From the NCBI GenBank assembly GCA_043810775.1, contig JBDRNU010000015.1, positions 1 to 64,000 of the forward strand: a stretch of DNA of 64,000 bases, read 5' to 3'. Shown here piece after piece: positions 20,061 through 39,507 of the stretch. A model generated the notes under the pieces. The model did no database searches. It had not been told where the DNA came from and was given only the letters and a program-made list of their open reading frames with translations. This DNA comes from an archaeon (GTDB lineage: Archaea; Nanobdellota; Nanobdellia; Pacearchaeales; GW2011-AR1). A program made the translations under genes and the position numbers. Every line of letters begins with the position of its first letter. Within the stretch, counting starts at the first letter, position 1.

Positions 20061-20081
20061 AAGTCTAAAATCTACCAAAGA

Positions 20082-20091
20082 TATTTAAATA
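20082..20091. promoter_or_regulatory. palindromic TATA box (TATTTAAATA), probably bidirectional
   Basis: ~21 nt from the - strand ATG 20060 and ~19 nt from the + strand ATG 20111. Confidence 0.5.
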
Positions 20092-20110
20092 TTTATTTAC
20101 TCTAGTCTCA

Positions 20111-22682: not shown

Positions 22683-22684
22683 TT

Positions 22685-23644: not shown

Positions 23645-23684
23645 GAATGCATTTAATTATAAGAATATAAAAGCTTATATTTAC

Positions 23685-24845
23685 TCAATTATAATCATCG
23701 AATGTATCCCTAATTATCTTATCCCATTTATATCTCTCTGAGTTTTTTCTGATGTCTTTCTTTTTCCAAATTAAAACCTCTTTTAATGCTTTCTCAATGT
23801 CCTTGCTGCTTTTTGGACTTATAATTAATCCCTCCCTCCCATTTTCCATCATCTTACTAACTCCTCCAACATTTGTAGCTATTACTTTCAAGTTCTTTGC
23901 AATTGCCTCCATTAGAGTTACAGGTGCTCCTTCTGTATAGCTAGGCAAGACAAAAACATCGCAAGCATCAAAATAAAGAAATTTTTCCTTACCATATACT
24001 GCCCCAACAAATCTGATATTTTTGATATTATTTTCTTCTGTAAATTTCTTATACCTCTCAATACTCCCTTCACCGATTAACAATAAATTAACACTCTCGC
24101 CAAGGCTTTTCATTGCTTCAACAAGTTCAAGCACTCCTTTGTTTTTGCTTATTCTGCCTATATAAAGCACATATTTTTTGTTTTTTTCAAATCCAAGTTT
24201 TTTTCTTGCCTTAATTTTATCACCTTTTTTAAAAAATTCATCATCAATACCCATTGTCTGGAATTTTATCTTAGAATTTGGGGCAGTTCTTTTCAAATAA
24301 CTAATTTCTTCATTGCTTAGAGCATAGAATACCTCAACTTTTCTCAAAAAATTATTTTCAATTGCCTGCATTATAAGTATGGCTGGCAAGAAGAAAAAAA
24401 GTTTCTTAAATTTTCCCAAGTTTTTAAAAGGACTTCTTCCACCATGATGCTGTGCAATAATTTTAAATCCATTTTTCTTTAAAAATAATATAAGGTATGC
24501 TTGCCAGGAATGATATTCATGTATATGGAGTATTAGTTTCTTCTTTTCTATTTTTGCTTTTATAATTTCCTTTTTCAAGGCTTTTATCATCTGTATTGAA
24601 ATATCCATTCCGTGCCTCAAGGAAAATGTTGAAGGAAAAATTCTAAACTTAATATTTTCATAATTTCTTGTTTTTTCTTTTTTGTATTTTCTTTCAGGAG
24701 TCCAGCACTCAACTTCTATTTTAGGGTAGAATTTTTTAAGCTGATAAGCAACTTGAGCATACCATCCTCTAAAAATATCCTGTTCATAGTTTTCCATTGC
24801 AAAAGAATGCGAACTTGAACTGATTTGAATTATTTTAAAGTTCAT
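23685..24845 (-). CDS. GT4 glycosyltransferase
   Basis: YIGRISKNKG, FVLPSYTEGAPVTLMEA, ATNVGG. Confidence 0.9.
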   Translation of the reverse strand: MNFKIIQISSSSHSFAMENYEQDIFRGWYAQVAYQLKKFYPKIEVECWTPERKYKKEKTRNYENIKFRIFPSTFSLRHGMDISIQMIKALKKEIIKAKIEKKKLILHIHEYHSWQAYLILFLKKNGFKIIAQHHGGRSPFKNLGKFKKLFFFLPAILIMQAIENNFLRKVEVFYALSNEEISYLKRTAPNSKIKFQTMGIDDEFFKKGDKIKARKKLGFEKNKKYVLYIGRISKNKGVLELVEAMKSLGESVNLLLIGEGSIERYKKFTEENNIKNIRFVGAVYGKEKFLYFDACDVFVLPSYTEGAPVTLMEAIAKNLKVIATNVGGVSKMMENGREGLIISPKSSKDIEKALKEVLIWKKKDIRKNSERYKWDKIIRDTFDDYN

Positions 24846-26359
24846 TTTCTGTATTTGAATTTATAACTAAACTCTCCAATTGGTTTCATAACTATTTTTT
24901 CCAGCTTTCTAGATATCTTAAATAAAATAAGAGATAAATTGCTTAAAATCAAAAAACCACTATAGACTATAAATATAGAAAAAGGATTTTTGAACCTTCT
25001 CTTAACTAAAACTTTCAAATTCCATTTTCCCATTATCCTGTAAAGCTTGTCAATCTCTCTATAAACTTCTTTACTTAGATTAAAAAAATTATTTTCAAGC
25101 TGTTCCCAGAAAACATGGTAATAAAGCATAAAAAAAGGATGATAATCTTCACTAAAAACTGGTTTTTTTGTAAGCCACCATTTTTCAAAATCATACTTCT
25201 TAGCATATTCTTCATATATCTCTGTATTTGGCATTGGCTGCAAAATCCCCCCACAAAATCCTTGTGTTACATACTTTCTAATTCTTCTGACATATTTCTG
25301 AAGGTTTTGAATATCCTTTACACTATCCCATGGAAAACCAGTCAAAATATTAACACCTACTCTAATATCTTCATCATAGCACCACTTGAGTATATTATCA
25401 ACATGCTTCACATACCATTCTGGGTTGCTTGTTTTTTTCATTTTTATCAAGGATTCAGGGATGCAGCTTTCAACACCAAGACTCATCATTACACATCCTG
25501 CATTTTTCATTTTTGAAATTATTTCTTTATCCAAGAAGTCTATTCTTGTAGCGCACACCCATTCAATTGGCAAGCTCTCTCTAATAAATAAATCACATAA
25601 TTCTAATAGTCTTGGCTTGTTTATTGTAAAAGCATCATCTATAAAATTAATATGATTAATTCCGTATTTTTTATGCAAGTGCTTTACTTCTTCAAAAACA
25701 TTTTTAGCAGATCTATATCTGAACTTTCTTCCAAATAAAGAGTGATAACAATAAGTGCATCTTCCAGGACAGCCTCTGCTTGATAATATTCCACCAAAAT
25801 TATTAATTTCACTCTTAATCTTAATATAGTCACTTTTTCTGAAAACATCTTTGTCTGGCATAGGAAGCTTATCCAAATTAAATATAGCCTCTTCTTCAGT
25901 TTTCTTTATTTTACCTTTTTCTTTGTAAACTAAATTTTTTATCTTATCAAACTTCTCACCTTTAGAAATAGCTTTTATTAGTTCAGCAAAAGAAACCTCT
26001 CCTTCTCCCACATAAGCTATATCTATGCTATTTTCAAGCGCTTCCTCTGGATAAATAGTTACATGAGGTCCTCCAGCAATAATTATTTTACAATAAGGTC
26101 TAATCTCTTTAATTAATTCATAAGAATACTTAACATAATTTGTGAATATGCTTATACCCACAATAATTGGCTTTTCTTTTTTTACAAGTTCAACAATGTC
26201 TTTTATAGTCTTAGTATTATACTGAGCATTCAAGTTTTCCACCATTACATCAAATCCGTTTTTTTTAGCAATAGCTCCCAGATATGCAAATGCCATTGGC
26301 GGTGAAGGGTCTTTCCATCCACTGCCTGCTCGTAAAAATAATATTTTTTCCTTAGTCAT
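24842..26359 (-). CDS. B12-binding domain radical SAM protein
   Basis: N-terminal cobalamin-binding domain (PPMAFAYL, IVGIS, AGGPHVT, GEGE), SRGCPGRCTYC, FIDDAF, GVES. Confidence 0.92.
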   Translation of the reverse strand: MTKEKILFLRAGSGWKDPSPPMAFAYLGAIAKKNGFDVMVENLNAQYNTKTIKDIVELVKKEKPIIVGISIFTNYVKYSYELIKEIRPYCKIIIAGGPHVTIYPEEALENSIDIAYVGEGEVSFAELIKAISKGEKFDKIKNLVYKEKGKIKKTEEEAIFNLDKLPMPDKDVFRKSDYIKIKSEINNFGGILSSRGCPGRCTYCYHSLFGRKFRYRSAKNVFEEVKHLHKKYGINHINFIDDAFTINKPRLLELCDLFIRESLPIEWVCATRIDFLDKEIISKMKNAGCVMMSLGVESCIPESLIKMKKTSNPEWYVKHVDNILKWCYDEDIRVGVNILTGFPWDSVKDIQNLQKYVRRIRKYVTQGFCGGILQPMPNTEIYEEYAKKYDFEKWWLTKKPVFSEDYHPFFMLYYHVFWEQLENNFFNLSKEVYREIDKLYRIMGKWNLKVLVKRRFKNPFSIFIVYSGFLILSNLSLILFKISRKLEKIVMKPIGEFSYKFKYRK

Positions 26360-26447
26360 TTTCCTTTATTAAAGTATCATAAAGCGCACAATAATATTTA
26401 TAAACATTCCTAACAGACTAAACTTATTAAATTTTTATTAATCAAAA

Positions 26448-27560
26448 ATGCCTTCAATACCCTTAACACATAAACTAAAGCTATTTTCCAACTATATAGT
26501 TACTGGCAAGCTCAAGGAAATTTATAATATATTCTGGGTATATACTTTTTGGTGGAATCATAGCCTCTCAGCATTTTTATTAAACAAGTTTCTTCCTAAA
26601 TTAGGAATAGATATGCCTCCTTTATTTTTAGAAATAGAGCATACCACCGTCTGTAGTTTCAGATGCAAGATTTGTGAGCATACTTACTGGAAAGAAGAGT
26701 CTAAAAATATGTCTTTTTCTCAGTTTAAGCACATTTTTGACCAGTTTAAACGCCCTAAATGGATAGGGCTTACAGGAATTGGTTCCTCATACCTAAATCC
26801 TGATTTTCATAAAATTGTTCGCTATTGTAAATCAAAAGGCACAATTGTCGAGCTAATGGACCATTTTGCACATTTTAAAAATGAAGCTCAAATTCGTGAA
26901 TTACTTGAAATCGGGCCTGACTTTCAATTTGTCTCAATGTACGGAGCAACTAAAAAAACCTCTGACAGCATATGTATTGGGAGTGACTTTGATAAAGTTA
27001 TAAAAAATATAAAGTCTTTTGTTAAGCTAAAAAAACAAATGAGCAAGAGATTTCCAATACTAAATTTTCATTTTATTGTAACCAGGCAGTCTAAGGATGA
27101 AATATTCCAGTTTTTAGACTTTGTCAAATCCCTAAATACAGAAATAGGGGAAGTTTTAGTAACCCCTATGCTTCATGATTTCAAGGAAGCTAAAGGGTAT
27201 GCTGTCAAACTTGATGAGCAGTATATAACTAAAGTAAGGCAAAAAGCCAAAAAATTAGGTATTGCTACAACTATTAATCTAACAGCAATGGCAGAAGCAG
27301 AAGGCCTTTCAAGAAAGCCTAAATTTAGCTATTGCAAGGAGTATATTATGCCATTTGTTTTTGTTACAGGGCATGTAAGCCCCTGCTGTGGCATTAATGA
27401 AGCCAATGAACGCGAGTTGCTTAAGAAAAACTCTCCTGGCAACTTATTTGAAAAAAATCTTTATGATATATGGTATTCTCCACAATATAAAAGAATAAGA
27501 ACAATGATAAGAAAAGACAAATGCCCTAAAGAATGTACTTTATGTCCTGCTTATGAATAA
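26448..27560 (+). CDS. radical SAM protein with SPASM/twitch domain (4)
   Basis: CSFRCKIC, C-terminal CKEY...PCC...CPKECTLC. Confidence 0.87.
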   Translation: MPSIPLTHKLKLFSNYIVTGKLKEIYNIFWVYTFWWNHSLSAFLLNKFLPKLGIDMPPLFLEIEHTTVCSFRCKICEHTYWKEESKNMSFSQFKHIFDQFKRPKWIGLTGIGSSYLNPDFHKIVRYCKSKGTIVELMDHFAHFKNEAQIRELLEIGPDFQFVSMYGATKKTSDSICIGSDFDKVIKNIKSFVKLKKQMSKRFPILNFHFIVTRQSKDEIFQFLDFVKSLNTEIGEVLVTPMLHDFKEAKGYAVKLDEQYITKVRQKAKKLGIATTINLTAMAEAEGLSRKPKFSYCKEYIMPFVFVTGHVSPCCGINEANERELLKKNSPGNLFEKNLYDIWYSPQYKRIRTMIRKDKCPKECTLCPAYE

Positions 27561-29456
27561 TTATTTGTATTTTTTCCAAGCTTTTTTATAAGATTCAATC
27601 ATTTTCTCTGCATAATTTTCCCAAGTCAAATTCTTTTTAATAAAAATCCTGTTTTTTTCAGCTTGTTTTTTATACTCTTTCTGATTTTCATAGATCTCAA
27701 GTATAGCTTTATCATACTCTTTAGTAACAATCCCTAAATTATTTTTCTTAATTATGGGTGAGCTTCCCATATCACTTGAAACAATAATAGGAATTCCTGC
27801 AGATAACATTTCAAAAGGAGCAATCCATCCTCCCTGCTTACCAATTGGAAATAAACCTATATCTGCTACTTTATAGAGATTTCTTAATTTATCCCTTTCC
27901 CCAAACATAATAATATATTTAACATATTTTTCAAGTTTTTTTTCTTTGATATATTCATCAAGTTGTTTCTTATATTCTGGATCTTCTTTTCCAGTAAGAA
28001 CTAATAAAATATTTGGGATCTTATCTTTAATTTTTTCAACAGCCTTTATACTTGCCATCTGGTTTTTTATTCCAGATATCTGCCCTGATTGCATTACTAT
28101 GAATTTTCCTTTAAGACCATAGTCTTTTATGGCTTTTTGACGATCTCCTTTTGAGAAAAAATCATAATTAACTCCACAATAAACTACTGTTGAGTCTCTT
28201 CCATACCTTTGAAAGGCTCTTTTTTTATTAAATTCATCTAATACACAAATTTCATCCATACTTTTTCTAATCATAAACCAATCTGCTAAGATTCTTAATT
28301 TATTTAGCCCTTTTAAAAACAATCCAGCATCAGGCTTACTCCATAAATTTGGGGGCTGGTTCATAAACCAAACAGTGGGTTTTCTTCTTGGCCATAAAGT
28401 CCACGTAACTGGAAAATCATGAAAATTAATAATATCATAATTATCTTTTATTTCTTTTAGTTTCTTCCTAAAGACTTTAATTGCCTTAAAAATATCTCGC
28501 ATATTTTTATATCCAGGAGGCCTTAAATCTATATCATGATATGGTGTGATGATTTCGGTATTAATTAAATCATTTTCAACTTTTCTAGATTTAGACAAAG
28601 CAAGAATATCATTTTTTATACCTCTTTTTGTAAGCCAATTTGCTAGTTCAACTATTAATAATTCTGCTCCCCCATAATACTTCATCTGATTATGCACAAT
28701 CAAAACTTTTGGATTGTTTTTCTTAATCATATCTTTAGCTAAGTCATAATCTTCTTTTATATTAACATTAACATAATCTTTTGTAATAGGATATACATAT
28801 ACTTTTTTGGCATCATCTATTGCTACTTGAATCATATCTACCATTTCTTTTTGTCCACGATAAGCATTAATGGGAGTTCTTTCTAGGTAATCTAAGATCT
28901 CATTTTTGAAAATACAATGACCTGTCCCTTTTATATTATTAATTTTAACTTTAGGTTTTTCTATCATTCTAAAAGCTCTTCCTTTTTCATTAACCATCGC
29001 AGAATAAGTTTTTCTTATACTTAGTCTATCTTCTTCAAATATAATTCCACAAATAGCAAAAAGATCTTCATCTCTAAATTTTTTAACCATTTCTTTTATT
29101 TTAGCATCTACAACAATCTCATCACCCAACATTAGAATAAAATCATCATTGCCAATAGCTTTTCTCGCAGTCTCAATAGCATCTACTAATCCTTTTTTTG
29201 CAAGAGCTTTAATTGAAAATCCTTCTTTAATATAAGTAATCTTTACTCCTTTATACTCCTTTCCTAAAGCTTTCATTATCTGCTCTTGTTTATAACAAAC
29301 AGTAATTAATATCTCACTTACTCCAGCTTCAATTGCTTGATCAAGATTATACTCAATTAATGGCTTTTCATATATTTTTACTAAACTCTTGCTTTGATCT
29401 TTAGTAAAATCATTCAACCTAGAGCCCCTTCCACCAGCCAAAATAAGTGCTTTCAT
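27561..29456 (-). CDS. fusion of sugar-1-phosphate nucleotidyltransferase (RmlA/GlmU-like) and GT4 glycosyltransferase
   Basis: N-terminal MKALILAGGRGSRL, KPLI, LGD, IEKP; from about aa 250 a GT-B domain with YGGAE, IKNQ, IAPFEMLSAGIP, LTWE. Confidence 0.85.
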   Translation of the reverse strand: MKALILAGGRGSRLNDFTKDQSKSLVKIYEKPLIEYNLDQAIEAGVSEILITVCYKQEQIMKALGKEYKGVKITYIKEGFSIKALAKKGLVDAIETARKAIGNDDFILMLGDEIVVDAKIKEMVKKFRDEDLFAICGIIFEEDRLSIRKTYSAMVNEKGRAFRMIEKPKVKINNIKGTGHCIFKNEILDYLERTPINAYRGQKEMVDMIQVAIDDAKKVYVYPITKDYVNVNIKEDYDLAKDMIKKNNPKVLIVHNQMKYYGGAELLIVELANWLTKRGIKNDILALSKSRKVENDLINTEIITPYHDIDLRPPGYKNMRDIFKAIKVFRKKLKEIKDNYDIINFHDFPVTWTLWPRRKPTVWFMNQPPNLWSKPDAGLFLKGLNKLRILADWFMIRKSMDEICVLDEFNKKRAFQRYGRDSTVVYCGVNYDFFSKGDRQKAIKDYGLKGKFIVMQSGQISGIKNQMASIKAVEKIKDKIPNILLVLTGKEDPEYKKQLDEYIKEKKLEKYVKYIIMFGERDKLRNLYKVADIGLFPIGKQGGWIAPFEMLSAGIPIIVSSDMGSSPIIKKNNLGIVTKEYDKAILEIYENQKEYKKQAEKNRIFIKKNLTWENYAEKMIESYKKAWKKYK

Positions 29457-29576
29457 TCATTTTCTCCCTCACCCCTTGTTTTGATAAGAATCTTCTGAGT
29501 ATTTAAATAGTTTACGTTAAAGCTTTATTTCTTTACATTATATAAATGTTTAAAAAAACTGTTTCTAGCTAGTAGT

Positions 29577-31115
29577 ATGAAAATTACCCTAATATCAACA
29601 TCAACTTATCCTTCTGACCAGGGTATAAGGACAATATCATCTGTCTTAAAAAAGCAAGGATATCATGTGAAAACTGTTTTTATGACCTTAAGTGAAGATT
29701 ATAACAGAAATTATTCGCTCTCTGAATTGCAACAACTAGCTAAATTATGCACTGGAAGCAGTTTTATAGGTATCAGCTCATTTGCCTCAACATCTAAAAG
29801 AGCGGCCAAAATCATCACTTTTCTCAGAAAAAAAACAAAAATACCTTTAATTTATGGTGGAGTTCATGCAACAATTTCTCCTGAAGATTGTATAAAACAT
29901 TCAGATATTGTATGTGTTGGTGAAGGTGAACAAGCAGTAGTAGAATTTGCAAAAGCAATAGAAAAAAGCAAGAAAATTTCCCGCATAAAAAATCTATGGA
30001 TAAAGCTTCCTAGTGGTGAGATTAAGAAAAATCCAGTAAGACCTTTAATTGATAACTTAGACAGCTTACCTCTTCCAGACTATAATACTCAAGACCATTT
30101 TATTTTAAAAAGAGGAAAAATCAAAAAACTCCAGGAATCTGATTTATCTGGGCAGATTTTTTTTCTAACAGGAAGAGGATGTCCTTATGGTTGTGACTAC
30201 TGTAGTAACAGTTTTTTTAATAAATTATATGAAGGAAAAAGAAAAAAAATACTAAGATGGCACTCTCCTGAATATATTATTAATGGAATACTATCTTATA
30301 AAAAGAAATTTTCTTCTTTAAGCTATTTTGATATTCGCGATGATACTTTTTCTTTGCGTCCAATTCAAGATATTAAAAAATTCTGTGATTTATACAAAGA
30401 AAAAATTAAAATGAGATTCAAATGCCTTGCAGACCCGAAAACCATATCTGAAGAAAAAATCAAGCTACTAGTTGATGCAGGTTGCACCGATATTATCATA
30501 GGAATTCAGGGCTGCGAGCGAACTAATCTTGAGCTTTATCATAGAAACCAAAAAGATGCTTATGCTATTAATACTGGAAAAATCCTTAGTAAATATAAAT
30601 CTAGGCTCTGTGTAATGTATGATGTCATAACAAACAACCCTTACGAAAAACCAGAAGATATTACTAATTTAATAAGTTTACTTCAAAAAATATCCAAGCC
30701 TTATTATCTTTCTGTAAATAATCTTGTTTTTTTCCCAGGTTCCCAATTATATAGACAAGCAGTAGAAGATGGAACTATAAAATCAGAAAAAGATGCAGCC
30801 TATCTTTTAAACTACTGGGACAGAAGTAAACATATTCTTCTTAGGAGGAAAAACATCTATCTTAACCTTATTCTTAATCTAATGCGTGGACCAGCAACTG
30901 ATTCTAGGTTTGGATTAATGCCTAATTTTATTTTAAATTATCTACTTGAAGAAAAAAGAATTAAAAGAAACTTAAAAAATCCCCTATTATCTTATCTAGT
31001 TTTATATTTAGTTTCCTTTTCTGATTTAATAAGGGAAAAAATACTCAAACCAACTTACAGAAGCCTGCCAGTATCTTTTAAAGTATGGTATGATAAAGTC
31101 AGATACAGAGCCTAG
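29577..31115 (+). CDS. B12-binding domain radical SAM protein
   Basis: IGISS, YGGVHAT, VGEGE, GRGCPYGCDYC, RDDTF, GIQG. Confidence 0.9.
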   Translation: MKITLISTSTYPSDQGIRTISSVLKKQGYHVKTVFMTLSEDYNRNYSLSELQQLAKLCTGSSFIGISSFASTSKRAAKIITFLRKKTKIPLIYGGVHATISPEDCIKHSDIVCVGEGEQAVVEFAKAIEKSKKISRIKNLWIKLPSGEIKKNPVRPLIDNLDSLPLPDYNTQDHFILKRGKIKKLQESDLSGQIFFLTGRGCPYGCDYCSNSFFNKLYEGKRKKILRWHSPEYIINGILSYKKKFSSLSYFDIRDDTFSLRPIQDIKKFCDLYKEKIKMRFKCLADPKTISEEKIKLLVDAGCTDIIIGIQGCERTNLELYHRNQKDAYAINTGKILSKYKSRLCVMYDVITNNPYEKPEDITNLISLLQKISKPYYLSVNNLVFFPGSQLYRQAVEDGTIKSEKDAAYLLNYWDRSKHILLRRKNIYLNLILNLMRGPATDSRFGLMPNFILNYLLEEKRIKRNLKNPLLSYLVLYLVSFSDLIREKILKPTYRSLPVSFKVWYDKVRYRA

Positions 31116-31801
31116 CTTTCATAAATACTTGGGTCTCTAACACTGGAAAACTTAAACCCTTTTTTCCTGGCAAGACAAGCCGAGCACTTACCACAATGAA
31201 TAGGAATTTTTTTATTATTAATTTTAGCAAATCCCTTTCCCAGATAACAGCTATAAGTATTTTCAAGGTGAAGTTTTAGTTTTTCTCCAAGTTCTATAAT
31301 CTCTTCTTTGTCCTTATTCAAAAAAGGAGCAATTATTTTATAATCTCCTTTTTGAATGGCTTTTTCTGCCAGTTTATTCATTCTTTTTAAAAATTCATTA
31401 GTTGTATCATTAAACTGGATATCCCCTTCATGTTTGATACCTAGGTAAATATCATATTTATCACTTTTTGATAAAAATTCAGACTCAACATGAGCCAGAG
31501 CTATGCTCAGAAATATAGTATTTCTACAAGGCACATACCACTTTATTATCTCTTCTTTCCCACTAACCTTATTTTTATTAATTAAACTTGTACTTATCTT
31601 CCCAAGCCACTTAATATCTATGACTTCCAATTCAGCTTTTATTTCCTTTGCAAGTTTCTTAACACAGAACAACTCCTCTTCAAGGCATTTTTGCCCATAA
31701 TTGAAAAATAAAATCTTGATTTTTCTAGCCTTATTTTTAATATAATGAGCAGTTACATAACTATCCAAACCACCTGAAGCTAGCAAAACAACACTATTCA
31801 T
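31112..31801 (-). CDS. queC: QueC-like (7-cyano-7-deazaguanine synthase family) PP-loop ATPase
   Basis: SGGLDS, NYGQ, YVPCRNTIFL, TYSCY...HCGKCSAC..R Zn site; the usual YPDC motif reads FNDT. Confidence 0.8.
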   Translation of the reverse strand: MNSVVLLASGGLDSYVTAHYIKNKARKIKILFFNYGQKCLEEELFCVKKLAKEIKAELEVIDIKWLGKISTSLINKNKVSGKEEIIKWYVPCRNTIFLSIALAHVESEFLSKSDKYDIYLGIKHEGDIQFNDTTNEFLKRMNKLAEKAIQKGDYKIIAPFLNKDKEEIIELGEKLKLHLENTYSCYLGKGFAKINNKKIPIHCGKCSACLARKKGFKFSSVRDPSIYES

Positions 31802-31851
31802 CTATTTTATAGTATAAAAAACTTTAAATACATTCCCAATTTCAACAAATT

Positions 31852-32055
31852 ATGGCAAGGAAACAGTTTAAAGATCTAAAACAAGGTGACAAAATAGTAT
31901 TATTTGGAGATATATTTTCAATTAAAAACATAGAGCTGTCTGAAAAAGGACTAAAACAAGGTAAAACTAAGTGTAGGGTTGTTACTGAAAATCTTGCTAG
32001 CAAAGAAGAAAAAATAATTATCAGGCTTGCAGAAGAATACGTAAATACTCCTTGA
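31852..32055 (+). CDS. 67-aa stand-alone aIF5A/EF-P N-terminal (KOW/SH3-like) domain protein
   Basis: DLKQGDKIVL...SEKGLKQGKTKCRV...YVNTP parallels aIF5A LKxGxYIII...SxPGKHGxAKARI...VxVP; ends at the domain boundary. Confidence 0.6.
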   Translation: MARKQFKDLKQGDKIVLFGDIFSIKNIELSEKGLKQGKTKCRVVTENLASKEEKIIIRLAEEYVNTP

Positions 32056-32064
32056 CACTATAAA

Positions 32065-32973
32065 ATGAATTATATAATTATTACTAGTTATGGCGAGCCA
32101 AAATCTACTGTTAAAGCAATCAAATCCATATTCAATCAAAAAATAAAGGAAAAATATAAAATCATTTTAGTTGATCCATTTCCAAAAACAGGAGATTATA
32201 TTAGAAAAGAGCTAAATTCTGAGAATATAGAATTTTTTCTTGACCCTGGAGAAGGAAAAAGCTATGCCTTAAATATTATATTTGAGCAGATTTATTCTAA
32301 GAATACAGAAGATATAATAATTCTTACAGATGGTGATATCTATATTTCAGATAATTCAGTAAATCTAATTACAGATGCATTTAAAGACAAAGAAATAGGA
32401 TGCGTAACTGGCAAACCGGTTTCTTTAAATAAAAAAAATAATAAATATGGTTATTGGAGCCACTTACTATTTGCAGGCATACACAGAGTCAGAAAAAAAC
32501 TATCTAAGCAAAAGTCTTTTTTTGAGTGCTCTGGTTATTTATTTGCAATTAGGAACGGAGTTTTGCAAGGCTTTCCTTTAGAATCTTCAGAAGATAGTAT
32601 AATTCCTTATTTATTCTGGGGGAAAAATTATAAAATTAAATATGTTCCAGAAGCAGAAGTTTATGTACTTAATCCAACTAACTGGAAAGATTGGAAAACT
32701 CAAAAAATTAGAAACATTAAAGGGCACGAAAATCTAAGCAAAATAGTTCCAGATATGCCTAGAACAAAATCTTTTTTCAAGGAAATTAAAGAAGGCACTT
32801 TTTTTGCAATATCTTATCCTAGGAAAGTAAAAGAATACTATTGGACTATCCTGCTTTTCCTATCTAGATTTTATATATATTTAGTGGCTTTTTATGATCT
32901 TAAACTAAGGAAAAAAAGCTATCAAGATGGTTGGCGCGTTGAAAAAACAAAGTCAACTAGTCCTTTAGACTAG
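32065..32973 (+). CDS. GT2 glycosyltransferase
   Basis: GKSYALN, ILTDGD (DxD), SGYLFAIR, SED catalytic motif. Confidence 0.85.
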   Translation: MNYIIITSYGEPKSTVKAIKSIFNQKIKEKYKIILVDPFPKTGDYIRKELNSENIEFFLDPGEGKSYALNIIFEQIYSKNTEDIIILTDGDIYISDNSVNLITDAFKDKEIGCVTGKPVSLNKKNNKYGYWSHLLFAGIHRVRKKLSKQKSFFECSGYLFAIRNGVLQGFPLESSEDSIIPYLFWGKNYKIKYVPEAEVYVLNPTNWKDWKTQKIRNIKGHENLSKIVPDMPRTKSFFKEIKEGTFFAISYPRKVKEYYWTILLFLSRFYIYLVAFYDLKLRKKSYQDGWRVEKTKSTSPLD

Positions 32974-33366
32974 TTTTTTAAGCTCTTTTTCTAGCTCCTT
33001 AAATGAATCAAATATTTTAACACTTCCTAGAAGCATTGCGCTTAGTTCAGGAATTGAATCTTCAGCTTTTTTGTCTGTCTTTATACCTATGATCTTCTTT
33101 CTTAGTGAATAAGCATATCCAATTTCCCAGGCTGTTCCTGCCCCAGGCCTACCATCTAGTAAAGCTAGAACAAAATTACACTCATCTAAGGCTATTACAT
33201 CTTCCTTAAAAGCCACTTCTAACTCTTCCTTAAAAGCCACAATTCCTACATCTCTATGTGGTAAGAAGGTCTCAAAACCTAATTTTTGGCATAATTTATC
33301 AATTTTTTCAAGTATAACTCTCTCTTCTTCTGAGCATATCTTTCCAGCAATATATATTTTTTTCAT
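32965..33366 (-). CDS. nucleoside 2-deoxyribosyltransferase / Rcl-MilB-like N-glycosidase family protein
   Basis: IYIAG, FLPHRD, FKEDVIALDEC, GTAWEIGYA. Confidence 0.82.
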   Translation of the reverse strand: MKKIYIAGKICSEEERVILEKIDKLCQKLGFETFLPHRDVGIVAFKEELEVAFKEDVIALDECNFVLALLDGRPGAGTAWEIGYAYSLRKKIIGIKTDKKAEDSIPELSAMLLGSVKIFDSFKELEKELKKLV

Positions 33367-33459
33367 TTAAAAGATAGAAATCCCTTATATTTTAAACTTT
33401 TCTAAACAACCAAATCTATTTTACCATAAATTTTTAAATCCCCTGTTTCTAGTAAACAC

Positions 33460-34569
33460 ATGACTAAGTGGAATCCTAAATGTAGGTTTTTTAATGAGAA
33501 ATATGCTTGTGATACTCTTAGTACTGAAGGTTACAAGTCGTGTACTGAGTGTAAATTTGTTTCACCTTATTCAAAAAAGATATTAATTATAAAATTAGGA
33601 GCTTTAGGTGATGTTCTAAGAACCACTCCTATTTTAGAGGCAATCAAGAAAAAGTATGGGGATGAAACTACTATTTACTGGCTTACTTTGGAAAACAGCA
33701 AAGAATTACTTAAAAACAACCCCTATATTAACAAAATATTAATTTATAATCCTGAAAATATCTTAAGAATACAGCAAGAAGAATTCGATATATTATATTC
33801 TTTAGAGATTACCACTCCAGCGACTATCTTGTCAAATATAGTAAATGCAAAGGAAAAGCATGGATATTATTTTAATAATGGAGCAACATCCTGCTATAAT
33901 AAAGGTGCAGAAGAGTACCTTGAAACAGCTTTTTTAACCCATATAAAGCTTTCTAATAGGAAATCCTATCAAGAACTAATATTTCAAGCTTGTGATTTAT
34001 CTTTTAATAAGGAGCAAATTATTTTTGAGCTATCTGAAAAAGAAAAAAAGTTCGCTGAGGAATTTAAGCAGAAAAATAATCTTTTAGATTCAGACAAACT
34101 TATAGGGATAAACTTTTCAGCAGGTGAAAGATGGCCTACAAAAGAGTGGTCTACTTCAAAATTAAAAGAACTAATAAAAACTCTTTCAAAAGATTATAAA
34201 ATTATTCTTTTAGGTGGCCCTGAAGAAAGAGAAAAAATACCTCAAATAATATCTGAGTTAAAAAAAGAAGGGATTTATGTACTATCAAATAATCCTGAGA
34301 ATTCTATATGGGAGTTTGCTTCAATTCTAGATTTATGTGAAAAAGTAATAGTCACTGATTCATTATCTTTACACCTTTCCCTAGCTTTGAAAAAGCCAAC
34401 GATTTCTTTATTTTTTTCAACACCTCCTTGGGAAATTGAAGATTATGGAAATTCAAAAAAAATAGTTTCTCCTTTATTAGAAAAGCATTTTTTTTCAATG
34501 AAATATTCAGATGAACTAGCAAATAGCATTTCAGTTGAAGAGGTACAGCAAAATGTCCGAAATTATTAA
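33460..34569 (+). CDS. GT9 heptosyltransferase family protein with Cys4 N-terminal extension
   Basis: ILIIKLGALGDVL, RWPTKEW, LGGPEE, VTDSLSLHLSLAL. Confidence 0.88.
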   Translation: MTKWNPKCRFFNEKYACDTLSTEGYKSCTECKFVSPYSKKILIIKLGALGDVLRTTPILEAIKKKYGDETTIYWLTLENSKELLKNNPYINKILIYNPENILRIQQEEFDILYSLEITTPATILSNIVNAKEKHGYYFNNGATSCYNKGAEEYLETAFLTHIKLSNRKSYQELIFQACDLSFNKEQIIFELSEKEKKFAEEFKQKNNLLDSDKLIGINFSAGERWPTKEWSTSKLKELIKTLSKDYKIILLGGPEEREKIPQIISELKKEGIYVLSNNPENSIWEFASILDLCEKVIVTDSLSLHLSLALKKPTISLFFSTPPWEIEDYGNSKKIVSPLLEKHFFSMKYSDELANSISVEEVQQNVRNY

Positions 34570-35125
34570 AAAGCTAATTGAAGATAGTCTCGAATCAAAA
34601 AAAGCTATTTTTAATATTATTCCTGAAATAGAAAAGTCAGCAGAATTGTTAAGACTCTCTCTAAAAGATGGAAACAAAATACTTATTTGTGGAAACGGAG
34701 GTTCAGCTTCTCAATCCCAGCATTTTGCAGCTGAACTAGTTGGTAGATTTGAAGCTGAACGAAAAGGGATAAGTTGCATTTCCCTTACTGTAGATACATC
34801 AAATATTACAGCAATAGCAAATGACTATGGTTTTGAGTTTATATTCTCAAAGCAAATAGAAGCTTTAGGCAGAGAAGGAGATGTTTTAATTGCTTTATCT
34901 ACTTCAGGAAATTCAAAAAATATAATAAAAGCAATTGAAGAGTCAAGAGCTAAAAATATGAAAATAATCAATTTAATAGGAAAGGATGGTGGAAAAATGA
35001 AAGGAATGGCTGATATTGATTTAATCGTGCCAGATAAAAATACTGCAAGAATTCAAGAAGGGCATATACTAGTGCTTCATATCTTGGCCAAGCTGGTTGA
35101 AGACGCCTTTCTTACTACTAATTGA
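34553..35125 (+). CDS. gmhA: D-sedoheptulose-7-phosphate isomerase
   Basis: CGNGGSASQSQHFAAELVGRF, TAIANDYG, STSGNS, TARIQEGH. Confidence 0.95.
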   Translation: MSEIIKKLIEDSLESKKAIFNIIPEIEKSAELLRLSLKDGNKILICGNGGSASQSQHFAAELVGRFEAERKGISCISLTVDTSNITAIANDYGFEFIFSKQIEALGREGDVLIALSTSGNSKNIIKAIEESRAKNMKIINLIGKDGGKMKGMADIDLIVPDKNTARIQEGHILVLHILAKLVEDAFLTTN

Positions 35126-35139
35126 ATATTTTAAGGAAA

Positions 35140-36033
35140 ATGATTGATTTCAAAAAAATAAAACTTATCCCTATTAGTCAAAGAAAGAACAAGTTTTCTA
35201 TAGAGGATTCTATTTCCTTGGAAAATAACATTTTTTTAGAAAATGAAGACCTAAAAGAACTTTCTGAAAAAATTATAGAAGCAAGAAGAAACAACAAACA
35301 AATTATCTTTATGTTAGGTGCTCACTCACTTAAAGTAGGGCTTTCCCTAATTTTAATCGATTTAATAAAAAAAGGGATTATTACTCATCTTGCAGTTAAT
35401 GGAGCATTTCCAATTCATGACTTTGAAATTGCTTTAATCGGGAAAACAAGTGAATCAGTGGAAAATACAATTGAAAACGGGACTTTTGGATTTGCAAAAG
35501 AAACTTTAGAATTTATTAATGAAGCAGCAAAACAAGGCGCAGAACATAATTTAGGTTATGGAGAATCAATAGCCCGAAAAATGGATAAATCAAATTTAAA
35601 ATACAAAAATTTAAGTGTTTTATACAATGCTTATAAGGACAACATTCCCCTAACAATTCATACTGCAATTGGAACAGAAATTATCTATCAATATCCTGAA
35701 TGCTCTGGGGAGGCAATTGGAAAATGCAGCTACAATGATTTTAAATTATTTACAGATTCCATTTCAAAACTTCAAGATGGCGTAATCCTAAATATAGGCT
35801 CAGCAGTAATACTTCCTGAAGTATTCTTAAAAGCGCTGTCTATTGCAAGAAATTTAGATTTTAGCGTAAAGAATTTTATAGCAGCAAATCTTGATATGAT
35901 TAACCATTACAGACCAAGAGTAAATGTAGTTGAAAGACCAACCTCTCTTGGAGGAAAGGGATTTAACATAATTGGCAAGCATCAGGAAACAATTCCAACT
36001 TTGCATAAATTAATACTAAATAAACTTAACTAA
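35140..36033 (+). CDS. uncharacterised protein, probable deoxyhypusine-synthase-like NAD-binding fold (GSU2086-like)
   Basis: MLGAHSLKVGLS, THLAVNGA..IHDFE, SVLYNAY...IPLTIH, NIGSAVILPEVFLKA; lies between gmhA and gmhB. Confidence 0.6.
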   Translation: MIDFKKIKLIPISQRKNKFSIEDSISLENNIFLENEDLKELSEKIIEARRNNKQIIFMLGAHSLKVGLSLILIDLIKKGIITHLAVNGAFPIHDFEIALIGKTSESVENTIENGTFGFAKETLEFINEAAKQGAEHNLGYGESIARKMDKSNLKYKNLSVLYNAYKDNIPLTIHTAIGTEIIYQYPECSGEAIGKCSYNDFKLFTDSISKLQDGVILNIGSAVILPEVFLKALSIARNLDFSVKNFIAANLDMINHYRPRVNVVERPTSLGGKGFNIIGKHQETIPTLHKLILNKLN

Positions 36034-36034
36034 A

Positions 36035-36565
36035 GTGAAATCTAAAGCTGTATTTTTAGATAGAGATGGGGTAATCAATGAAGATAAAGGCTATGTTCAT
36101 AAAATAGAAGATTTCAGAGTTTTTCCCGGAGTTTTTGAAGCACTAAAAAAACTTAAACAATCAGATTTTAAACTTGTCATTGTAACAAATCAGTCAGGCA
36201 TAGGTAGAGGATACTATTCAGAGCAGGATTATTTAGAACTAACAGAGCAAATAATTAAAATTTTTAAACAGCAAGATATAGAATTTGATGATATTCTTTA
36301 CTGTCCCCATAGTCCAGATGAAAACTGTGATTGCAGGAAACCCTCCCCAAAATTATTTCTTGATGCAATCAAAAAATTTAATCTAGTTCCTGATAATTGT
36401 TGGATTATAGGTGATAAATTTTCAGATGTAAAACCAGCAGAAAAAATTGGCTGTAAATCAATACTAATTAAATCTAGCTATACTGAAAAATTAACTGATA
36501 ATAATCTATTAACAGCAAAAGATTTATATGAAGCAGTAGAGATTATTTTAAGTAAAAATGATTGA
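36035..36565 (+). CDS. gmhB: D-glycero-D-manno-heptose-1,7-bisphosphate phosphatase
   Basis: FLDRDGVIN, VTNQSGIGRG, CPH....CDCRKP, IGDKFSD; GTG start. Confidence 0.93.
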   Translation: MKSKAVFLDRDGVINEDKGYVHKIEDFRVFPGVFEALKKLKQSDFKLVIVTNQSGIGRGYYSEQDYLELTEQIIKIFKQQDIEFDDILYCPHSPDENCDCRKPSPKLFLDAIKKFNLVPDNCWIIGDKFSDVKPAEKIGCKSILIKSSYTEKLTDNNLLTAKDLYEAVEIILSKND

Positions 36566-37949
36566 AAGAATAAATAAGTTTAAAGATGCAAATATTTTGG
36601 TAATTGGAGATATCATGCTTGATAAGTACTTTGAAGGAGATGTTTTAAGAATTTCTCCTGAAGCTCCAGTTCCAGTAGTCCACATTAAAGAAGAATTTCA
36701 TGAAATTGGTGGCGCAGGAAATGTAGCTTCAAATATTGCCTCTCTTGGAGGAAAAGCAACAATTTTTTCTTTTGTTGGAAATGATCCTGAAGCTGAAATT
36801 TTGAAAAGACTATTAGACCAAAAAAGCATAACTTACTTTTTTGACACAACTTCAAGCACAATTCAAAAAACAAGAGTAGTTGGAAAAGGTCAGCAGTTGG
36901 TTAGATTTGATAAAGAAGAGGCAAGTGAGAAGATGTTTAGCAATGAGATAAAAAATAAGATTATAGAAAAAGCAAATGAAGCTAATATCATTTTAATTTC
37001 AGATTATGCTAAAGGAGCAATAACTCTAGATTTAATGAATTTACTATCTAATTTTAAAAATAAGATAATTGTTGATGCAAAACCTAAAAATAAAGAACTT
37101 TTCAAAGGGGTTTTTTTAACAAAATCTAATGAAAAAGAGTCTCTTACAATGTCTTCAAAAATGAATGTGCATGAAGCCGGGCAGTTTCTTAATGATAATC
37201 TTAATTCAAATATCTTAATTACTAGGGGGGGTAAGGGTATGGTTTTATTCTCAGATAAAACAACAGAGATTCCAACTTATGCGAAGGAGGTGTATGATGT
37301 AACTGGTGCAGGAGATACTGTTATTGCAGCTCTTGCTTTAGCACTCTCTGTAGGTTCTTCTATTGAGGAGGCTGCAATTATATCAAATCATGCAGCAGGC
37401 ATTGCAGTAGGAAAAAAAGGAACATATCCTGTTAGTCTCAAAGAGCTTAAAAGTAAGTTTGAATATCAACAAATGAAAATAGTAAACTTGGATGAGTTAA
37501 AAAGGATAGTGGAAGATAATAAGAGAAAGGGCAAGAAAATAGTTTGGACAAATGGATGTTTTGACTTGATACATATTGGGCATGTGAGATATATGCAAGA
37601 TGCAAAGAAACTAGGTGACATTTTAATAGTTGGACTTAATTCAGATGCTTCTGTAAAATCTTTAAAAGGTCAATTCAGACCAATACAATCAGAACTTGAA
37701 AGAGCTGAAATTCTATCTTCACTAGAATTTGTTGATTATATAACCATCTTTCCAGAATCAAGTGTAGAAAAATACTTAATAGCTTTAAAACCTGATATAT
37801 ATGCCAAGGGCTCAGATTATAATCTTGAAATTATGAATCAAGACGAAAGAAAAGCTATTGAAAGTTATAAAGGAGAAACAAAATTTATTGCTCTAACTGA
37901 GGAGCAATCAACGTCAAAAATAATCAAAAAAATTAAAAATGGAATTTGA
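36558..37949 (+). CDS. hldE: bifunctional heptose-7-phosphate kinase / heptose-1-phosphate adenylyltransferase
   Basis: RISPEAPVPV, GGAGNVA, SDYAKG, DVTGAGDTV; C-terminal TNGCFDLIHIGH, GLNSDASV, STS. Confidence 0.95.
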   Translation: MIERINKFKDANILVIGDIMLDKYFEGDVLRISPEAPVPVVHIKEEFHEIGGAGNVASNIASLGGKATIFSFVGNDPEAEILKRLLDQKSITYFFDTTSSTIQKTRVVGKGQQLVRFDKEEASEKMFSNEIKNKIIEKANEANIILISDYAKGAITLDLMNLLSNFKNKIIVDAKPKNKELFKGVFLTKSNEKESLTMSSKMNVHEAGQFLNDNLNSNILITRGGKGMVLFSDKTTEIPTYAKEVYDVTGAGDTVIAALALALSVGSSIEEAAIISNHAAGIAVGKKGTYPVSLKELKSKFEYQQMKIVNLDELKRIVEDNKRKGKKIVWTNGCFDLIHIGHVRYMQDAKKLGDILIVGLNSDASVKSLKGQFRPIQSELERAEILSSLEFVDYITIFPESSVEKYLIALKPDIYAKGSDYNLEIMNQDERKAIESYKGETKFIALTEEQSTSKIIKKIKNGI

Positions 37950-39507
37950 TGAAAAAAAAGAGATTAAAGAAGAGGAGATAATCAATAAAAGAACCCAAAA
38001 GATTAAAGATAAATTTCCTTGGCTTAAAGATCCATACAATTTAGCTTTTGTTATATTATTAGTATTATTTTTTATTATTAGAATTTACTATTTTTCTATG
38101 ACTTATAATCAACCCTTATGGTGGGATGAAGCAGATTATATGGATATGGCAAGAACTTGGTTAGGTAAAGTCCCATGGGATTATAGCCCTGTAAGACCTA
38201 TTTTATTTCCAAGCCTAATCTCTTTGTTTATGCTAATTGGACTTGGAGAATTTTCTATTAAGTTTTTTATTCTTCTGTCTTCAATAGTCTCAATTTTATT
38301 ATTGTATAAATTAGGAGACCTTTTTTTCAACAAAAGAGTAGCTATTATTTCAGCATCAATTCTCGCATTTTTTTGGAGTTTTAATTTTTATTCTTATAGG
38401 GTTTTAGTTGATGTTCCAATCGCCATGTTATGGTTAGCCACAATTTATTTTTTCTTTGACGCTTATTTTAATAATCGTAACTGGAAGCAATTTGCAATAG
38501 CTGGAATTTTCCTAGGACTTGCATTTTTGCTTAAATACTCCTCATTTACACTTGTAGTTATGTTAGGATTTTACTTAATCACAACAGAAAAATTTAGAGT
38601 ACTTACAAATAAAAAAATAATAACTTTTTTTCTAGTCTCTCTTATAACTATATTACCTTTGTTTATCTTCCAATATGTAGTGTTTGGACATCCCTTGCAA
38701 TTTCTTGCAACTGTTCAGGAAACTGGCTCACAACTTAGGTCAACCTTTCAGTCACTGATAGATCAATCAAAGTTTATGTTTGAACTTATTTTTCCAGCTT
38801 TATTTGCATTTTTCATTTTTGGATTGATAACAACTTTATTTTATATCTTCTTATCTTGGGATATAACTCTCAAAAAGAAAACACTAACTAATAATTATTA
38901 TTTTATACTTATATGGCTTTTATTTTCAATTGGCTTTTTTGCAAAAATTAATTATGGGGCTTACATGGATGAAAGATATTATTTTGTATTTTATCCAGCG
39001 ATATTTCTGATTTGTGGGGTTGGTTTTGATAAAGCTTATCTAGTAATTAAAAAATACAATAAAATATTAGCAATAATAATTATATCAGTTGTATTATTAT
39101 TTGCATTTTATCAGCACTCTATTCAAGCTAATAATACTATTAAGCTGAAAAAAGATTCATTTTTGCAGCTTAAATTGGCTGGCGAGTACATAAAAGAAAA
39201 TACTAAACCTGGAGAAAAGGTTTTTGTTTTAGAAGAGCAAGCTGAAATAGTTTATTACTCTGAAAGACCTTATATTCATATTGGGCACTCTGATGGAGAA
39301 GCAATTATGAAACTTATAAAAGAGCACAATCCTCCTTATGTAGTTATGTCTTTGTATTATTCACTAGGTCAAAATCAGACCCCTGTAAGTTATATACTGT
39401 CAAATCAAGATATATTCCAACCAGTCCAAGCTTATGGACCTTATATAGATGAGAAACAAACTCTACCTATAGCAACAATATTCAGAGTAAATTCAAGCTA
39501 CTACTAA
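37939..39507 (+). CDS. GT-C glycosyltransferase (PMT_2/ArnT-like), lipid-phosphate-sugar dependent
   Basis: WWDEADY after TM1, RPILFP, ~12 TMs, GLAFLLKY, ERY. Confidence 0.82.
   Translation: MEFDEKKEIKEEEIINKRTQKIKDKFPWLKDPYNLAFVILLVLFFIIRIYYFSMTYNQPLWWDEADYMDMARTWLGKVPWDYSPVRPILFPSLISLFMLIGLGEFSIKFFILLSSIVSILLLYKLGDLFFNKRVAIISASILAFFWSFNFYSYRVLVDVPIAMLWLATIYFFFDAYFNNRNWKQFAIAGIFLGLAFLLKYSSFTLVVMLGFYLITTEKFRVLTNKKIITFFLVSLITILPLFIFQYVVFGHPLQFLATVQETGSQLRSTFQSLIDQSKFMFELIFPALFAFFIFGLITTLFYIFLSWDITLKKKTLTNNYYFILIWLLFSIGFFAKINYGAYMDERYYFVFYPAIFLICGVGFDKAYLVIKKYNKILAIIIISVVLLFAFYQHSIQANNTIKLKKDSFLQLKLAGEYIKENTKPGEKVFVLEEQAEIVYYSERPYIHIGHSDGEAIMKLIKEHNPPYVVMSLYYSLGQNQTPVSYILSNQDIFQPVQAYGPYIDEKQTLPIATIFRVNSSYY

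Follow-up and report, generated by a model that had tools for sequence, protein, structure and literature searches.

The subject of this report is a 67-amino-acid (aa) protein encoded in an archaeon of the order Pacearchaeales (assembly GCA_043810775.1), within a window comprising the first 64000 nucleotides (nt) of contig JBDRNU010000015.1 (C15). The gene (31852..32055, + strand; ATG to TGA) encodes a stand-alone paralogue of the N-terminal SH3-like domain of aIF5A, hereafter the mini protein, and it is found across related genomes together with a divergently transcribed gene for a QueC-like PP-loop ATP pyrophosphatase (31112..31801, - strand; 229 aa) and a gene for a family 2 glycosyltransferase (GT2; 32065..32973, + strand; 302 aa). 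Constraint on an exposed lysine loop, co-inheritance with one QueC-like subfamily, coupling to GT2, and the precedents of Cap9/QatC and of EF-P/IF5A modification together point to the mini protein being a dedicated partner of the QueC-like enzyme. The reading tentatively preferred, with a probability of roughly 45%, is that the mini protein serves as a dedicated acceptor, the loop lysine K35 being predicted to undergo amide ligation by the QueC-like enzyme followed by glycosylation.

The position of the open reading frame (ORF) and its close spacing to the next gene, as given in an initial annotation of the window (the preliminary description), are confirmed: the TGA of the mini gene ends at 32055 and the ATG of GT2 follows at 32065 after a gap of 9 nt. 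The view that the protein halts at a domain boundary with no frameshift also holds, as the ORF that begins at 32065 encodes GT2 and not an OB domain. On the other side, a 50-nt AT-rich spacer (31802..31851) separates the start codons of the mini and QueC-like genes and presumably holds the promoters of both. G+C content of the window is 30%, and the assembly from which it derives amounts to 995 kb in 26 contigs and is 80% complete.

Homology of the mini protein to the aIF5A N-domain

Profile searches and a structural model together indicate that the mini protein is a homologue of the aIF5A N-domain along its full length. The NCBIfam model NF003076 (IF-5A) aligns residues 3-67 with profile positions 5-68 of 129 (E 3.1e-5), at a score of 23.6 bits that lies well under the 138-bit cut-off, versus 140.8 bits for the canonical aIF5A of the same genome; direct comparison with that 129-aa protein by BLASTP gives E 4e-6 with 12/34 identities in a segment spanning the loop. 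With the window mini protein as a single sequence, a search of the PDB reaches chain 1bkb at E 0.7, and Pfam returns no family at E <= 1. Across 40 family members Pfam recognizes PF21485 in 22 and PF08207 in 26, and when a profile is built from those 40 sequences (alignment A2) and compared with PDB sequences, all 28 matches at E <= 0.01 are IF5A, headed by 1bkb (4e-12) and 1iz6 (8.5e-12).

The AlphaFold2 (AF2) model of the mini protein (pLDDT 85) has six strands, and confidence is lowest for loop residues 30-39. Foldseek finds 32 matches to this model at E <= 0.001, the top ones listed being to aIF5A, to eIF5A or to EF-P domain I. The highest-ranking is 1bkb, with TMq 0.86 across 66 columns; others are IF5A in complex with deoxyhypusine synthase (DHS; 8put_E) and EF-P domain I as bound by EarP (5wxk_B, TMt 0.85). 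Similarity to the IF5A barrel in the various structure comparisons is in the range TMq 0.80-0.87. The whole-length resemblance noted by eye in the preliminary description is thus borne out by NF003076, BLASTP, PDB profile and Foldseek, and profile and fold searches recover IF5A/EF-P where a generic barrel protein would have shown no such similarity. In the ESM Atlas the nearest clusters are 'hypothetical proteins' of 58-65 aa from Nanobdellota, with 66-143 members each; the same rows also hold short clusters consisting of an IF5A N-domain only, of 86 aa (Thermoproteota) and 70 aa (Chlorophyta). A search of the genome for the C-terminal OB domain (PF01287, E <= 0.001) gave no match, but it is insensitive in this lineage, since the genome's own canonical aIF5A also escaped detection.

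The family and its lysine loop

A word-index search with the mini protein returned just three clusters and no longer relatives, and profile scans of genome and metagenome contigs with a three-sequence alignment (A1) returned nothing; wider profiles were needed. An exhaustive profile search of 1.84 billion representative proteins yielded 30 matches at E <= 1e-3, of which 29 are 51-82 aa long. The remaining one (P0013; 1998 aa) is a bacterial TPS/MBG-repeat protein and was dropped as spurious. For the search for related loci a closer 11-sequence alignment was used, A2 lacking a sufficiently conserved stretch. In A2 the aligned length of 61-72 aa is conserved among the 40 relatives, and mean identity is 45%.

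The strongest constraint on the mini protein falls on an exposed Lys/Gly loop. In the window this loop reads S30-E-K-G33-L-K35-Q-G37-K-T-K40-C-R42, with K35 at the position of the lysine that is hypusinated in IF5A. In A2 S30 and R42 are invariant, K40 is lysine in 39/40 sequences, and K35, G33 and G37 are each kept in 37/40; the three sequences with no lysine in the K35 column have lengthened loops that still contain G-K-x-G. Position 36 is glutamine in 20/40 and histidine in 17/40, so that the family consensus is S-x-x-G-K-[Q/H]-G-x-x-K-x-R. All 60 loci that were scored, which have both mini and QueC-like genes, show S-x-x-[G/S/A]-K-[Q/H]-G-x-x-K-x-R or a lengthened version of it; the loop is of standard length in every case except one, which has a longer insertion. 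Retention of the loop lysine, proposed earlier for the window protein, therefore extends to the homologues generally. The proposal that the loop has been remodelled to G-L-K-Q-G fares differently: the one-residue insertion is real in the window protein, but it is local to a small subclade (the window protein, P0002-P0004, P0006, L016 and L017), and the family otherwise has G-K-Q-G or G-K-H-G. The insertion column is occupied in 9/40 A2 sequences, counting the longer insertions of P0007 and P0021, and outside the order the loop is mostly the canonical G-K-H-G. In the window subclade the loop insertion coincides with F-[N/K]-D-T and a longer zinc loop in the QueC-like protein; as this is a single event, covariation between the mini loop and the QueC-like motif was set aside as too little to serve as evidence.

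An additional paralogue under purifying selection

A full-length canonical aIF5A (129 aa, with an S-K-T-G-K-H-G loop and full-length coverage by NCBIfam IF-5A models) is encoded on the same contig at about 80130..80519 (- strand), some 48 kb beyond the window; an FKBP-like ORF adjoins it. The mini gene is accordingly an extra copy, as its earlier designation as a truncated stand-alone paralogue had supposed. In a sample of 201 genomes of the order, where frames of 64-103 aa at E <= 4e-17 were taken as mini genes and frames of at least 125 aa as canonical aIF5A, 31 of the 35 mini-bearing genomes give two profile matches, one to the mini gene and one to canonical aIF5A. Of the pair of genes that the preliminary description proposed to look for elsewhere in the genome, aIF5A is thus present, whereas DHS went undetected: no match to PF01916 lies above cut-off in the 80%-complete genome. 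DHS is found in 196/201 genomes of the order, including 34/35 that bear the mini gene, and incompleteness of the assembly is the best attribution for its absence here. Nor does the neighbourhood contain the DHS-like gene that had been supposed; the 303-aa ORF at 35122..36033 is a GSU2086-family protein with no PDB sequence relative at E <= 1.

The mini gene evolves under purifying selection. For 64 orthologous mini genes, median dN/dS is 0.23 over 464 pairs with 0.3 < dS < 2.5, and the closest pairs give 0.07-0.12. A broken or frameshifted aIF5A is ruled out by this value together with the full-length copy elsewhere and the length kept in the 40 relatives. The 40 mini proteins were also placed in a tree with 21 canonical N-domains of the order. 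In this tree, which is unrooted and built from few columns, a single branch with support 100/99 separates the two sets, and terminal branches are 0.3-1.3 for mini proteins versus 0.05-0.46 for canonical aIF5A. The two share a K-C-R-I-E-A stretch in this lineage, a resemblance that fits an origin of the mini gene by duplication within this archaeal group.

Conservation of the gene neighbourhood

In a first survey, the loop pattern located the mini gene in 18 of 20 loci from related genomes, and in 18/18 there is a divergent QueC-family gene upstream and a same-strand GT2 gene downstream. The usual order continues with a convergent PF05014 gene and then a family 9 glycosyltransferase (GT9), and further upstream with a family 4 glycosyltransferase (GT4) and a B12-radical-SAM gene. 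A larger survey scored 67 public loci with hidden Markov models (HMMs) made from the neighbours; 66 were kept, one having no complete mini ORF at a contig end. The two surveys overlap in places, and their counts are not additive. Labels of the 67 loci are Pacearchaeota, Woesearchaeota or Nanoarchaeota with five exceptions (one each of Nanoarchaeia, Aenigmarchaeum and 'bacterium', and two given as 'archaeon' only); carriers of the family are DPANN archaea.

A divergent QueC-like gene lies within 900 nt upstream of the mini gene in 59/61 loci with enough upstream sequence, and the spacer between the two has a mode of 51 nt across related loci. GT2 lies directly 3' of the mini gene in 58/60 loci and at 754 and 1550 nt in the other two; its start overlaps the mini stop or sits within 20 nt of it in 49/58. 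A nucleoside 2-deoxyribosyltransferase-family (NDT-like) gene follows within 2.6 kb downstream in 50/55 loci and GT9 within 3 kb in 48/55. At one locus (L026, 5743-6057) an IS1595-family transposase fragment occupies the usual position of the NDT-like gene, a sign of local rearrangement of the module. The divergent QueC-like enzyme that the preliminary description named as neighbour thus proves to be one part of a conserved module, of which the translationally coupled GT2 and the remaining members had been missed.

Co-occurrence is equally strict at the level of genomes. In the 201-genome sample the mini gene is present in 35 genomes and a QueC-family match (E <= 1e-15) in 37, and in 35/35 mini-bearing genomes a QueC-like gene adjoins the mini gene on the same contig; the tally is 35 with both, 2 with QueC only, none with the mini gene only and 164 with neither. 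Where QueC occurs by itself, in the two genomes just counted, the genes are of other subfamilies (98 bits versus 260-380 on the QueC-like HMM) and no mini gene lies close to them. There are also 62 weaker, unlisted matches to the mini profile, so that a few very divergent mini genes may be missing from the count. Hits are spread over 23 of the 101 genera in the sample, and the module is therefore patchy and accessory. In a sample of 301 genomes of the class, the QueC-like profile finds 13 genomes, of which eight come from six other families; in 13/13 the mini gene stands beside the QueC-like gene, and GT2 comes next in 12, the thirteenth locus ending too early.

The QueC-like enzyme

Assignment of the divergent neighbour as a QueC-like ATP-dependent enzyme, made earlier, is upheld by its match to PF06508 (E 3.7e-47). 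On the QueC equivalog model TIGR00364 it scores 131 bits, under the cut-off of 150.3. Compared with PDB sequences, the QueC-like profile matches QueC (3bl5, 2.6e-25; 2pg3, 1.3e-22) and Cap9 (9nto_B, 2.1e-19), and among PADLOC models the protein matches QueC at 7.3e-31 and, weakly, QatC at 9.2e-7.

As described in the main text of the QueC-family survey (PMC13082051), the canonical signature consists of Y-x-Q-x-H-x-x-E, VPxRN, YPDC and C-x8-C-x2-C-x2-C, while the Cap9 variant has Y/F-x-Q-x5-E and retains Y-x-D-C and R-N. Seventeen QueC-like sequences (alignment A4) are invariant at SGGxDS (S9-G-G-x-D13-S14), Y35, Q37, E43, Y-V-P-x-R-N (R93), D132, K165 and four cysteines. VPxRN and the Cys4 motif of QueC are thus retained, the histidine of canonical QueC is lost with spacing Y-x-Q-x5-E, and YPDC is replaced by YPDT in most members. 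The window enzyme itself has SGGLDS, Y-G-Q-x5-E, VPCRN, F-N-D-T in place of YPDC, K165, and a Cys4 zinc motif with a long spacer. The Y-P-D of the family aligns with Y115 and D117 of Cap9, residues which, in the Cap9-CdnD structure (10.1101/2025.04.06.647259), grip the conjugated 7-amido-7-deazaguanine together with R86. According to the same report, Cap9 uses ATP to activate the carboxylate of 7-carboxy-7-deazaguanine, which is then attacked by a protein amine.

Several observations bear on the pathway in which the enzyme acts. It is the sole QueC-family gene of its genome, it scores below the equivalog cut-off, and in six genomes (its own, 80% complete, and five module-bearing genomes at least 90% complete) QueD/PTPS is found in 0/6 and TGT in 2/6, QueE not having been included in the search. 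The QueC-like enzyme therefore appears not to belong to the preQ0/archaeosine pathway.

GT2 and other members of the module

GT2 is a GT-A core protein of the hyaluronan/cellulose/chitin-synthase type by Pfam, and with a mean identity of 68% (alignment A5) it is the most conserved protein of the module. The residues D37, D89-x-D91, E176-D177 and Q213-x-x-R216 are invariant in the alignment; in the window the second of these motifs is D89-G-D91. Its AF2 model (pLDDT 88) matches hyaluronan synthase best in Foldseek (8smm_A, 2.1e-13), with further matches to a Pyrobaculum mannosyltransferase, cellulose synthase BcsA and chitin synthases, but it is without the membrane channel of hyaluronan, cellulose and chitin synthases. 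In none of the five core proteins does a 19-residue window exceed a mean Kyte-Doolittle hydropathy of 1.6, and the absence of strongly hydrophobic segments fits a soluble acceptor.

Convergent on GT2 is the NDT-like gene (32965..33366, - strand; 133 aa; PF05014, E 3.8e-16), whose product has weak PDB matches to solved N-deoxyribosyltransferases. GT9 (33460..34569, + strand; 369 aa) is heptosyltransferase-like (PF01075, E 5.1e-20; PDB 3tov, 1.6e-14), and the window copy has four cysteines in its first 31 residues (33460..33600 region). At two related loci, L019 (8373-9878) and L022 (4186-5574), GT9 is fused to a C-terminal NUDIX domain. Upstream, a frequent member of the module is a B12-binding radical SAM enzyme (29577..31115, + strand; 512 aa; PF04055 and PF02310), which is found in many, not all, related loci and for which the best NCBIfam models, a lipid-biosynthesis B12-radical-SAM protein and HpnJ, score far under their cut-offs. 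Beyond it lies a fusion of a sugar-1-phosphate nucleotidyltransferase with GT4 (27561..29456, - strand; 631 aa), the place of which is held by a separate GT4 in most related loci.

The surrounding glycan island

The module lies inside one continuous glycan/N-glycosylation island of ~43 kb (5092..48198), which contains GT2s, GT4s, GT9s, two Polysacc_synt flippases, a DegT aminotransferase, a hexapeptide acetyltransferase, a GFO oxidoreductase, methyltransferases and a PMT_2 protein. AglB/STT3 (45463..48198, - strand; 911 aa) and an AglH-like glycosyltransferase (44414..45433, - strand) stand at its far end. Two AsnB-type glutamine amidotransferase paralogues of ~625 aa, with Asn_synthase and GATase domains (6049..7935, + strand; 20805..22682, - strand), probably serve to amidate sugar acids or glycans and not to make asparagine. 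Immediately downstream of the module is a region for heptose-nucleotide supply (34535..37949, + strand), consisting of GmhA (34535..35125; 225 bits versus a cut-off of 209), the GSU2086-family protein already mentioned (35122..36033; E 1.6e-115), a HAD phosphatase (36035..36565) and an HldE-like fusion of a PfkB kinase with a cytidylyltransferase-like domain (CTP_transf_like; 36558..37949), all on the + strand. The GSU2086-family protein, which sits between GmhA and the phosphatase, is distantly like nickel-pincer-dependent ornithine cyclodeaminases.

The density of radical enzymes is unusual for a sugar cluster: there are three radical SAM/SPASM genes in tandem (15756..18895, + strand), a fourth at 26448..27560 (+ strand), and a second B12-binding radical SAM gene at 24842..26359 (- strand) in addition to that of the module. 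Beyond the island a ribosomal-protein gene cluster occupies 51974..63072 (+ strand), beginning with L3 at 51974, the one gene of the cluster that was checked.

Candidate roles of the mini protein

Of the three roles put forward in the preliminary description (a minimal factor, a decoy, or a lysine-bearing carrier or acceptor), the gene context favours the lysine-bearing acceptor, with the QueC-like enzyme as its obligate partner. The IF5A/EF-P loop is a classic target of enzymatic modification at its tip, where hypusine, beta-lysylation of lysine (EpmA), rhamnosylation of arginine (EarP) and 5-aminopentanol are all known, and the enzymes responsible are often encoded beside the factor. The QueC relatives Cap9 and QatC ligate a deazaguanine carboxylate to the N-terminal glycine amines of proteins. 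By analogy, the QueC-like enzyme would adenylate a carboxylate with ATP, and the epsilon-amine of K35 would attack to form an amide, either directly or after deoxyhypusination by the DHS of the lineage; the hyaluronan-synthase-like GT2 would then add sugars, and the NDT-like and GT9 neighbours may add more. SepE/SepF of septacidin are a possible model for the pairing of GT9 with an N-glycosidase. The putative elements of this scheme are that the QueC-like enzyme binds the mini protein and that K35 is the acceptor, along with which carboxylate is used, in what order the steps run and what the modified protein is for. A more specific version of it, in which K35 bears a nucleobase and not hypusine, is speculative and improbable as it stands: the QueC-like enzyme would link 7-carboxy-7-deazaguanine salvaged from a host or the environment, the NDT-like protein would add a (deoxy)ribosyl group at the free N9, and GT2 and GT9 would extend it.

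Several points weigh against the acceptor proposal. If the carboxylate is 7-carboxy-7-deazaguanine, a local source is not evident, QueD being found in none of the six genomes. The choice of K35 is an extrapolation, because Cap9 and QatC use an N-terminal glycine and the mini proteins have no conserved glycine there (the residue after the initiator methionine is A, K, T, G, V, P, E, I, M or Q). At locus L045 (3910-4742) the mini gene and GT2 occur with no QueC-like gene; the locus is beside an assembly gap, the upstream GT4 being broken by a run of N, and loss and misassembly are indistinguishable there. The co-occurrence counts are not independent events, since the genomes are kin. As the G-K-H-G loop of many members is near-canonical, its conservation could reflect binding to DHS or the ribosome and not to the products of the neighbouring genes. 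Lastly, the module is always inside a glycan island, and PMC13082051 counts WbpG-type sugar amidation among the activities of QueC's relatives, so that the enzymes could act on a glycan with the mini protein as an accessory.

This last point leads to a rather unlikely alternative, in which the mini protein is an unmodified adaptor or regulatory subunit, its small SH3-like barrel docking on GT2 or the QueC-like enzyme for specificity, stability or regulation, while the substrate of the QueC-like enzyme, GT2, the NDT-like protein and GT9 is a sugar, a nucleotide or the lipid-linked N-glycan of the island. The chief argument for it is the composition of the island, which has AglB/STT3, an AglH-like glycosyltransferase, two flippases and AsnB-type amidotransferases, and in which the heptose-nucleotide route is complete. 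The inclusion of WbpG-type N-acetyl-sugar amidotransferases among the PP-loop relatives of QueC (PMC13082051) agrees with it too; overlap or abutment of the mini and GT2 genes in 49/58 loci is common for subunits of one complex, and the identity of GT2 (68%) is the highest of the module versus 45% for the mini protein. Against an adaptor speak the tightest constraint, which falls on the exposed Lys/Gly loop and not on a broad surface, and retention by the QueC-like enzyme of the residues with which Cap9 holds 7-deazaguanine, unlike the diverged sugar amidotransferases; and that the QueC-like subfamily never occurs without the mini gene (35/35 and 13/13) is unusual for an optional accessory.

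There are two other explanations. A role linked to translation, in which the mini protein would act as a decoy or a minimal factor, seen by DHS or by the E/P-site region of the ribosome and tuning hypusination or the access of aIF5A, with neighbours unrelated to it, is improbable, even though many mini loops are nearly identical to that of the lineage's aIF5A (S-K-I-G-K-H-G-R-S-K-C-R-I-E-A versus S-K-T-G-K-H-G-H-A-K-C-R-I-E-A), DHS is present in 34/35 mini-bearing genomes, and the Foldseek matches of the model include IF5A chains in complex with DHS (8put_E) and with ribosomes. Incidental synteny leaves unexplained the perfect co-occurrence with one QueC-like subfamily in at least seven families of the class, and likewise the start/stop overlap with GT2; the terminal branches (0.3-1.3 against 0.05-0.46) show a far quicker evolution of mini proteins than of canonical aIF5A; the insertion and the replacement of histidine by glutamine in the window loop would be expected to disturb recognition by DHS; and domain II, which helps to hold aIF5A on the ribosome, is absent. 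Very improbable is a function of the module in archaeal immunity after the manner of Cap9/QatC, in which infection would trigger conjugation of deazaguanine to the mini protein and thereby switch on an effector, possibly the NDT-like protein as a nucleotide-degrading enzyme. NDT-family domains do occur in conflict systems, the module has the patchy spread of accessory systems (23/101 genera), and the QueC-like protein matches the PADLOC models for QueC (7.3e-31) and weakly QatC (9.2e-7); both characterised protein-modifying QueC relatives act in anti-phage defence. Against this, PADLOC has no match for the mini protein, GT2, the NDT-like protein or GT9; no CD-NTase, QatA/B/D or TGT partner was found; and the constant neighbours are glycosyltransferases and sugar-nucleotide enzymes, in an island that has AglB and not defence genes.

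Relation to known systems

The mini protein has the same SH3-like barrel as the N-domain of aIF5A/eIF5A (PF21485; 1bkb, 1iz6, 2eif), with a tip lysine flanked by glycines and followed by K-x-R, and shares with it the lineage-specific K-C-R-I-E-A. It differs in being half the length, with no C-terminal OB domain, in forming a separate long-branch clade that scores below the family cut-off, in the extra residue and the Q for H in the loop of the window subclade, and in that the mini gene is always accompanied by the QueC-like enzyme and GT2 whereas canonical aIF5A is not. In EF-P the loop tip is modified by the product of a nearby gene, either a glycosyltransferase or an enzyme that forms an amide at the expense of ATP, and the mini protein shares the domain-I fold of IF5A/EF-P, its model matching the EF-P domain I that is bound by EarP. 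In comparison with the EF-P systems (EpmA/EpmB/EpmC, EarP), the candidate ligase here is QueC-like rather than a lysyl-tRNA-synthetase paralogue, the transferase is of GT-A family 2 rather than GT-B as in EarP, and the putative acceptor is a truncated paralogue rather than the translation factor itself.

Like the Cap9/CD-NTase (type IV CBASS) and QatC/QatB pairs, the module has a QueC-family PP-loop/zinc enzyme that is encoded with a dedicated partner protein and apparently has no role in preQ0 synthesis. This enzyme also keeps SGGxDS, Y-x-Q-x5-E in its variant form, the R-N motif, and the aromatic residue and Asp between which the base is held (PMC13082051; 10.1101/2025.04.06.647259). Unlike those bacterial systems, the module is found in DPANN archaea; its partner is an IF5A-like barrel with a conserved internal lysine and no conserved N-terminal glycine; there is no Cap10/TGT, CD-NTase, QatA or QatD; its constant companions are glycosyltransferases and an NDT-like protein; and conjugation is predicted. 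The 'Cluster 4' QueC-family proteins with PfkB-PF05014 fusions (PMC13082051) share the Y-G-Q...E motif and the linkage to the NDT family (here 50/55 loci), but they are mainly proteobacterial and have a different Cys motif.

In full-text literature searches, neither a stand-alone aIF5A N-domain nor this QueC-like context was found described. The main text of PMC13082051 makes no mention of IF5A, EF-P, glycosyltransferases or DPANN, although its supplementary tables may list the neighbourhood, and in that text the archaeal QueC clusters 7, 8 and 10 are left unanalysed. What would be new here is the acceptor, its companions and the domain of life, whereas paralogy to the IF5A N-domain and likeness to QueC-family protein conjugation are known.

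Attachment of nucleobases to proteins by QueC-family enzymes was shown only in 2025-26, and the IF5A/EF-P loop tip is among the most inventively modified protein sites known; the two themes meet here in one conserved trio, in genomes for which the searches for QueD and TGT gave no sign that tRNA deazaguanine is made. If the acceptor proposal is true, the trio would represent a new protein modification and give a first function to an archaeal QueC paralogue group, and its 67-aa minimal substrate should lend itself to expression and measurement. Were the improbable nucleobase version correct, DPANN archaea would make a deazapurine nucleoside glycoside attached to a protein; this would be the first internal-lysine deazaguanylation and the first archaeal case, and would open a new branch of IF5A/EF-P loop chemistry. 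The aIF5A N-domain can persist alone under purifying selection, a fact that bears on what this domain is capable of without the OB domain.

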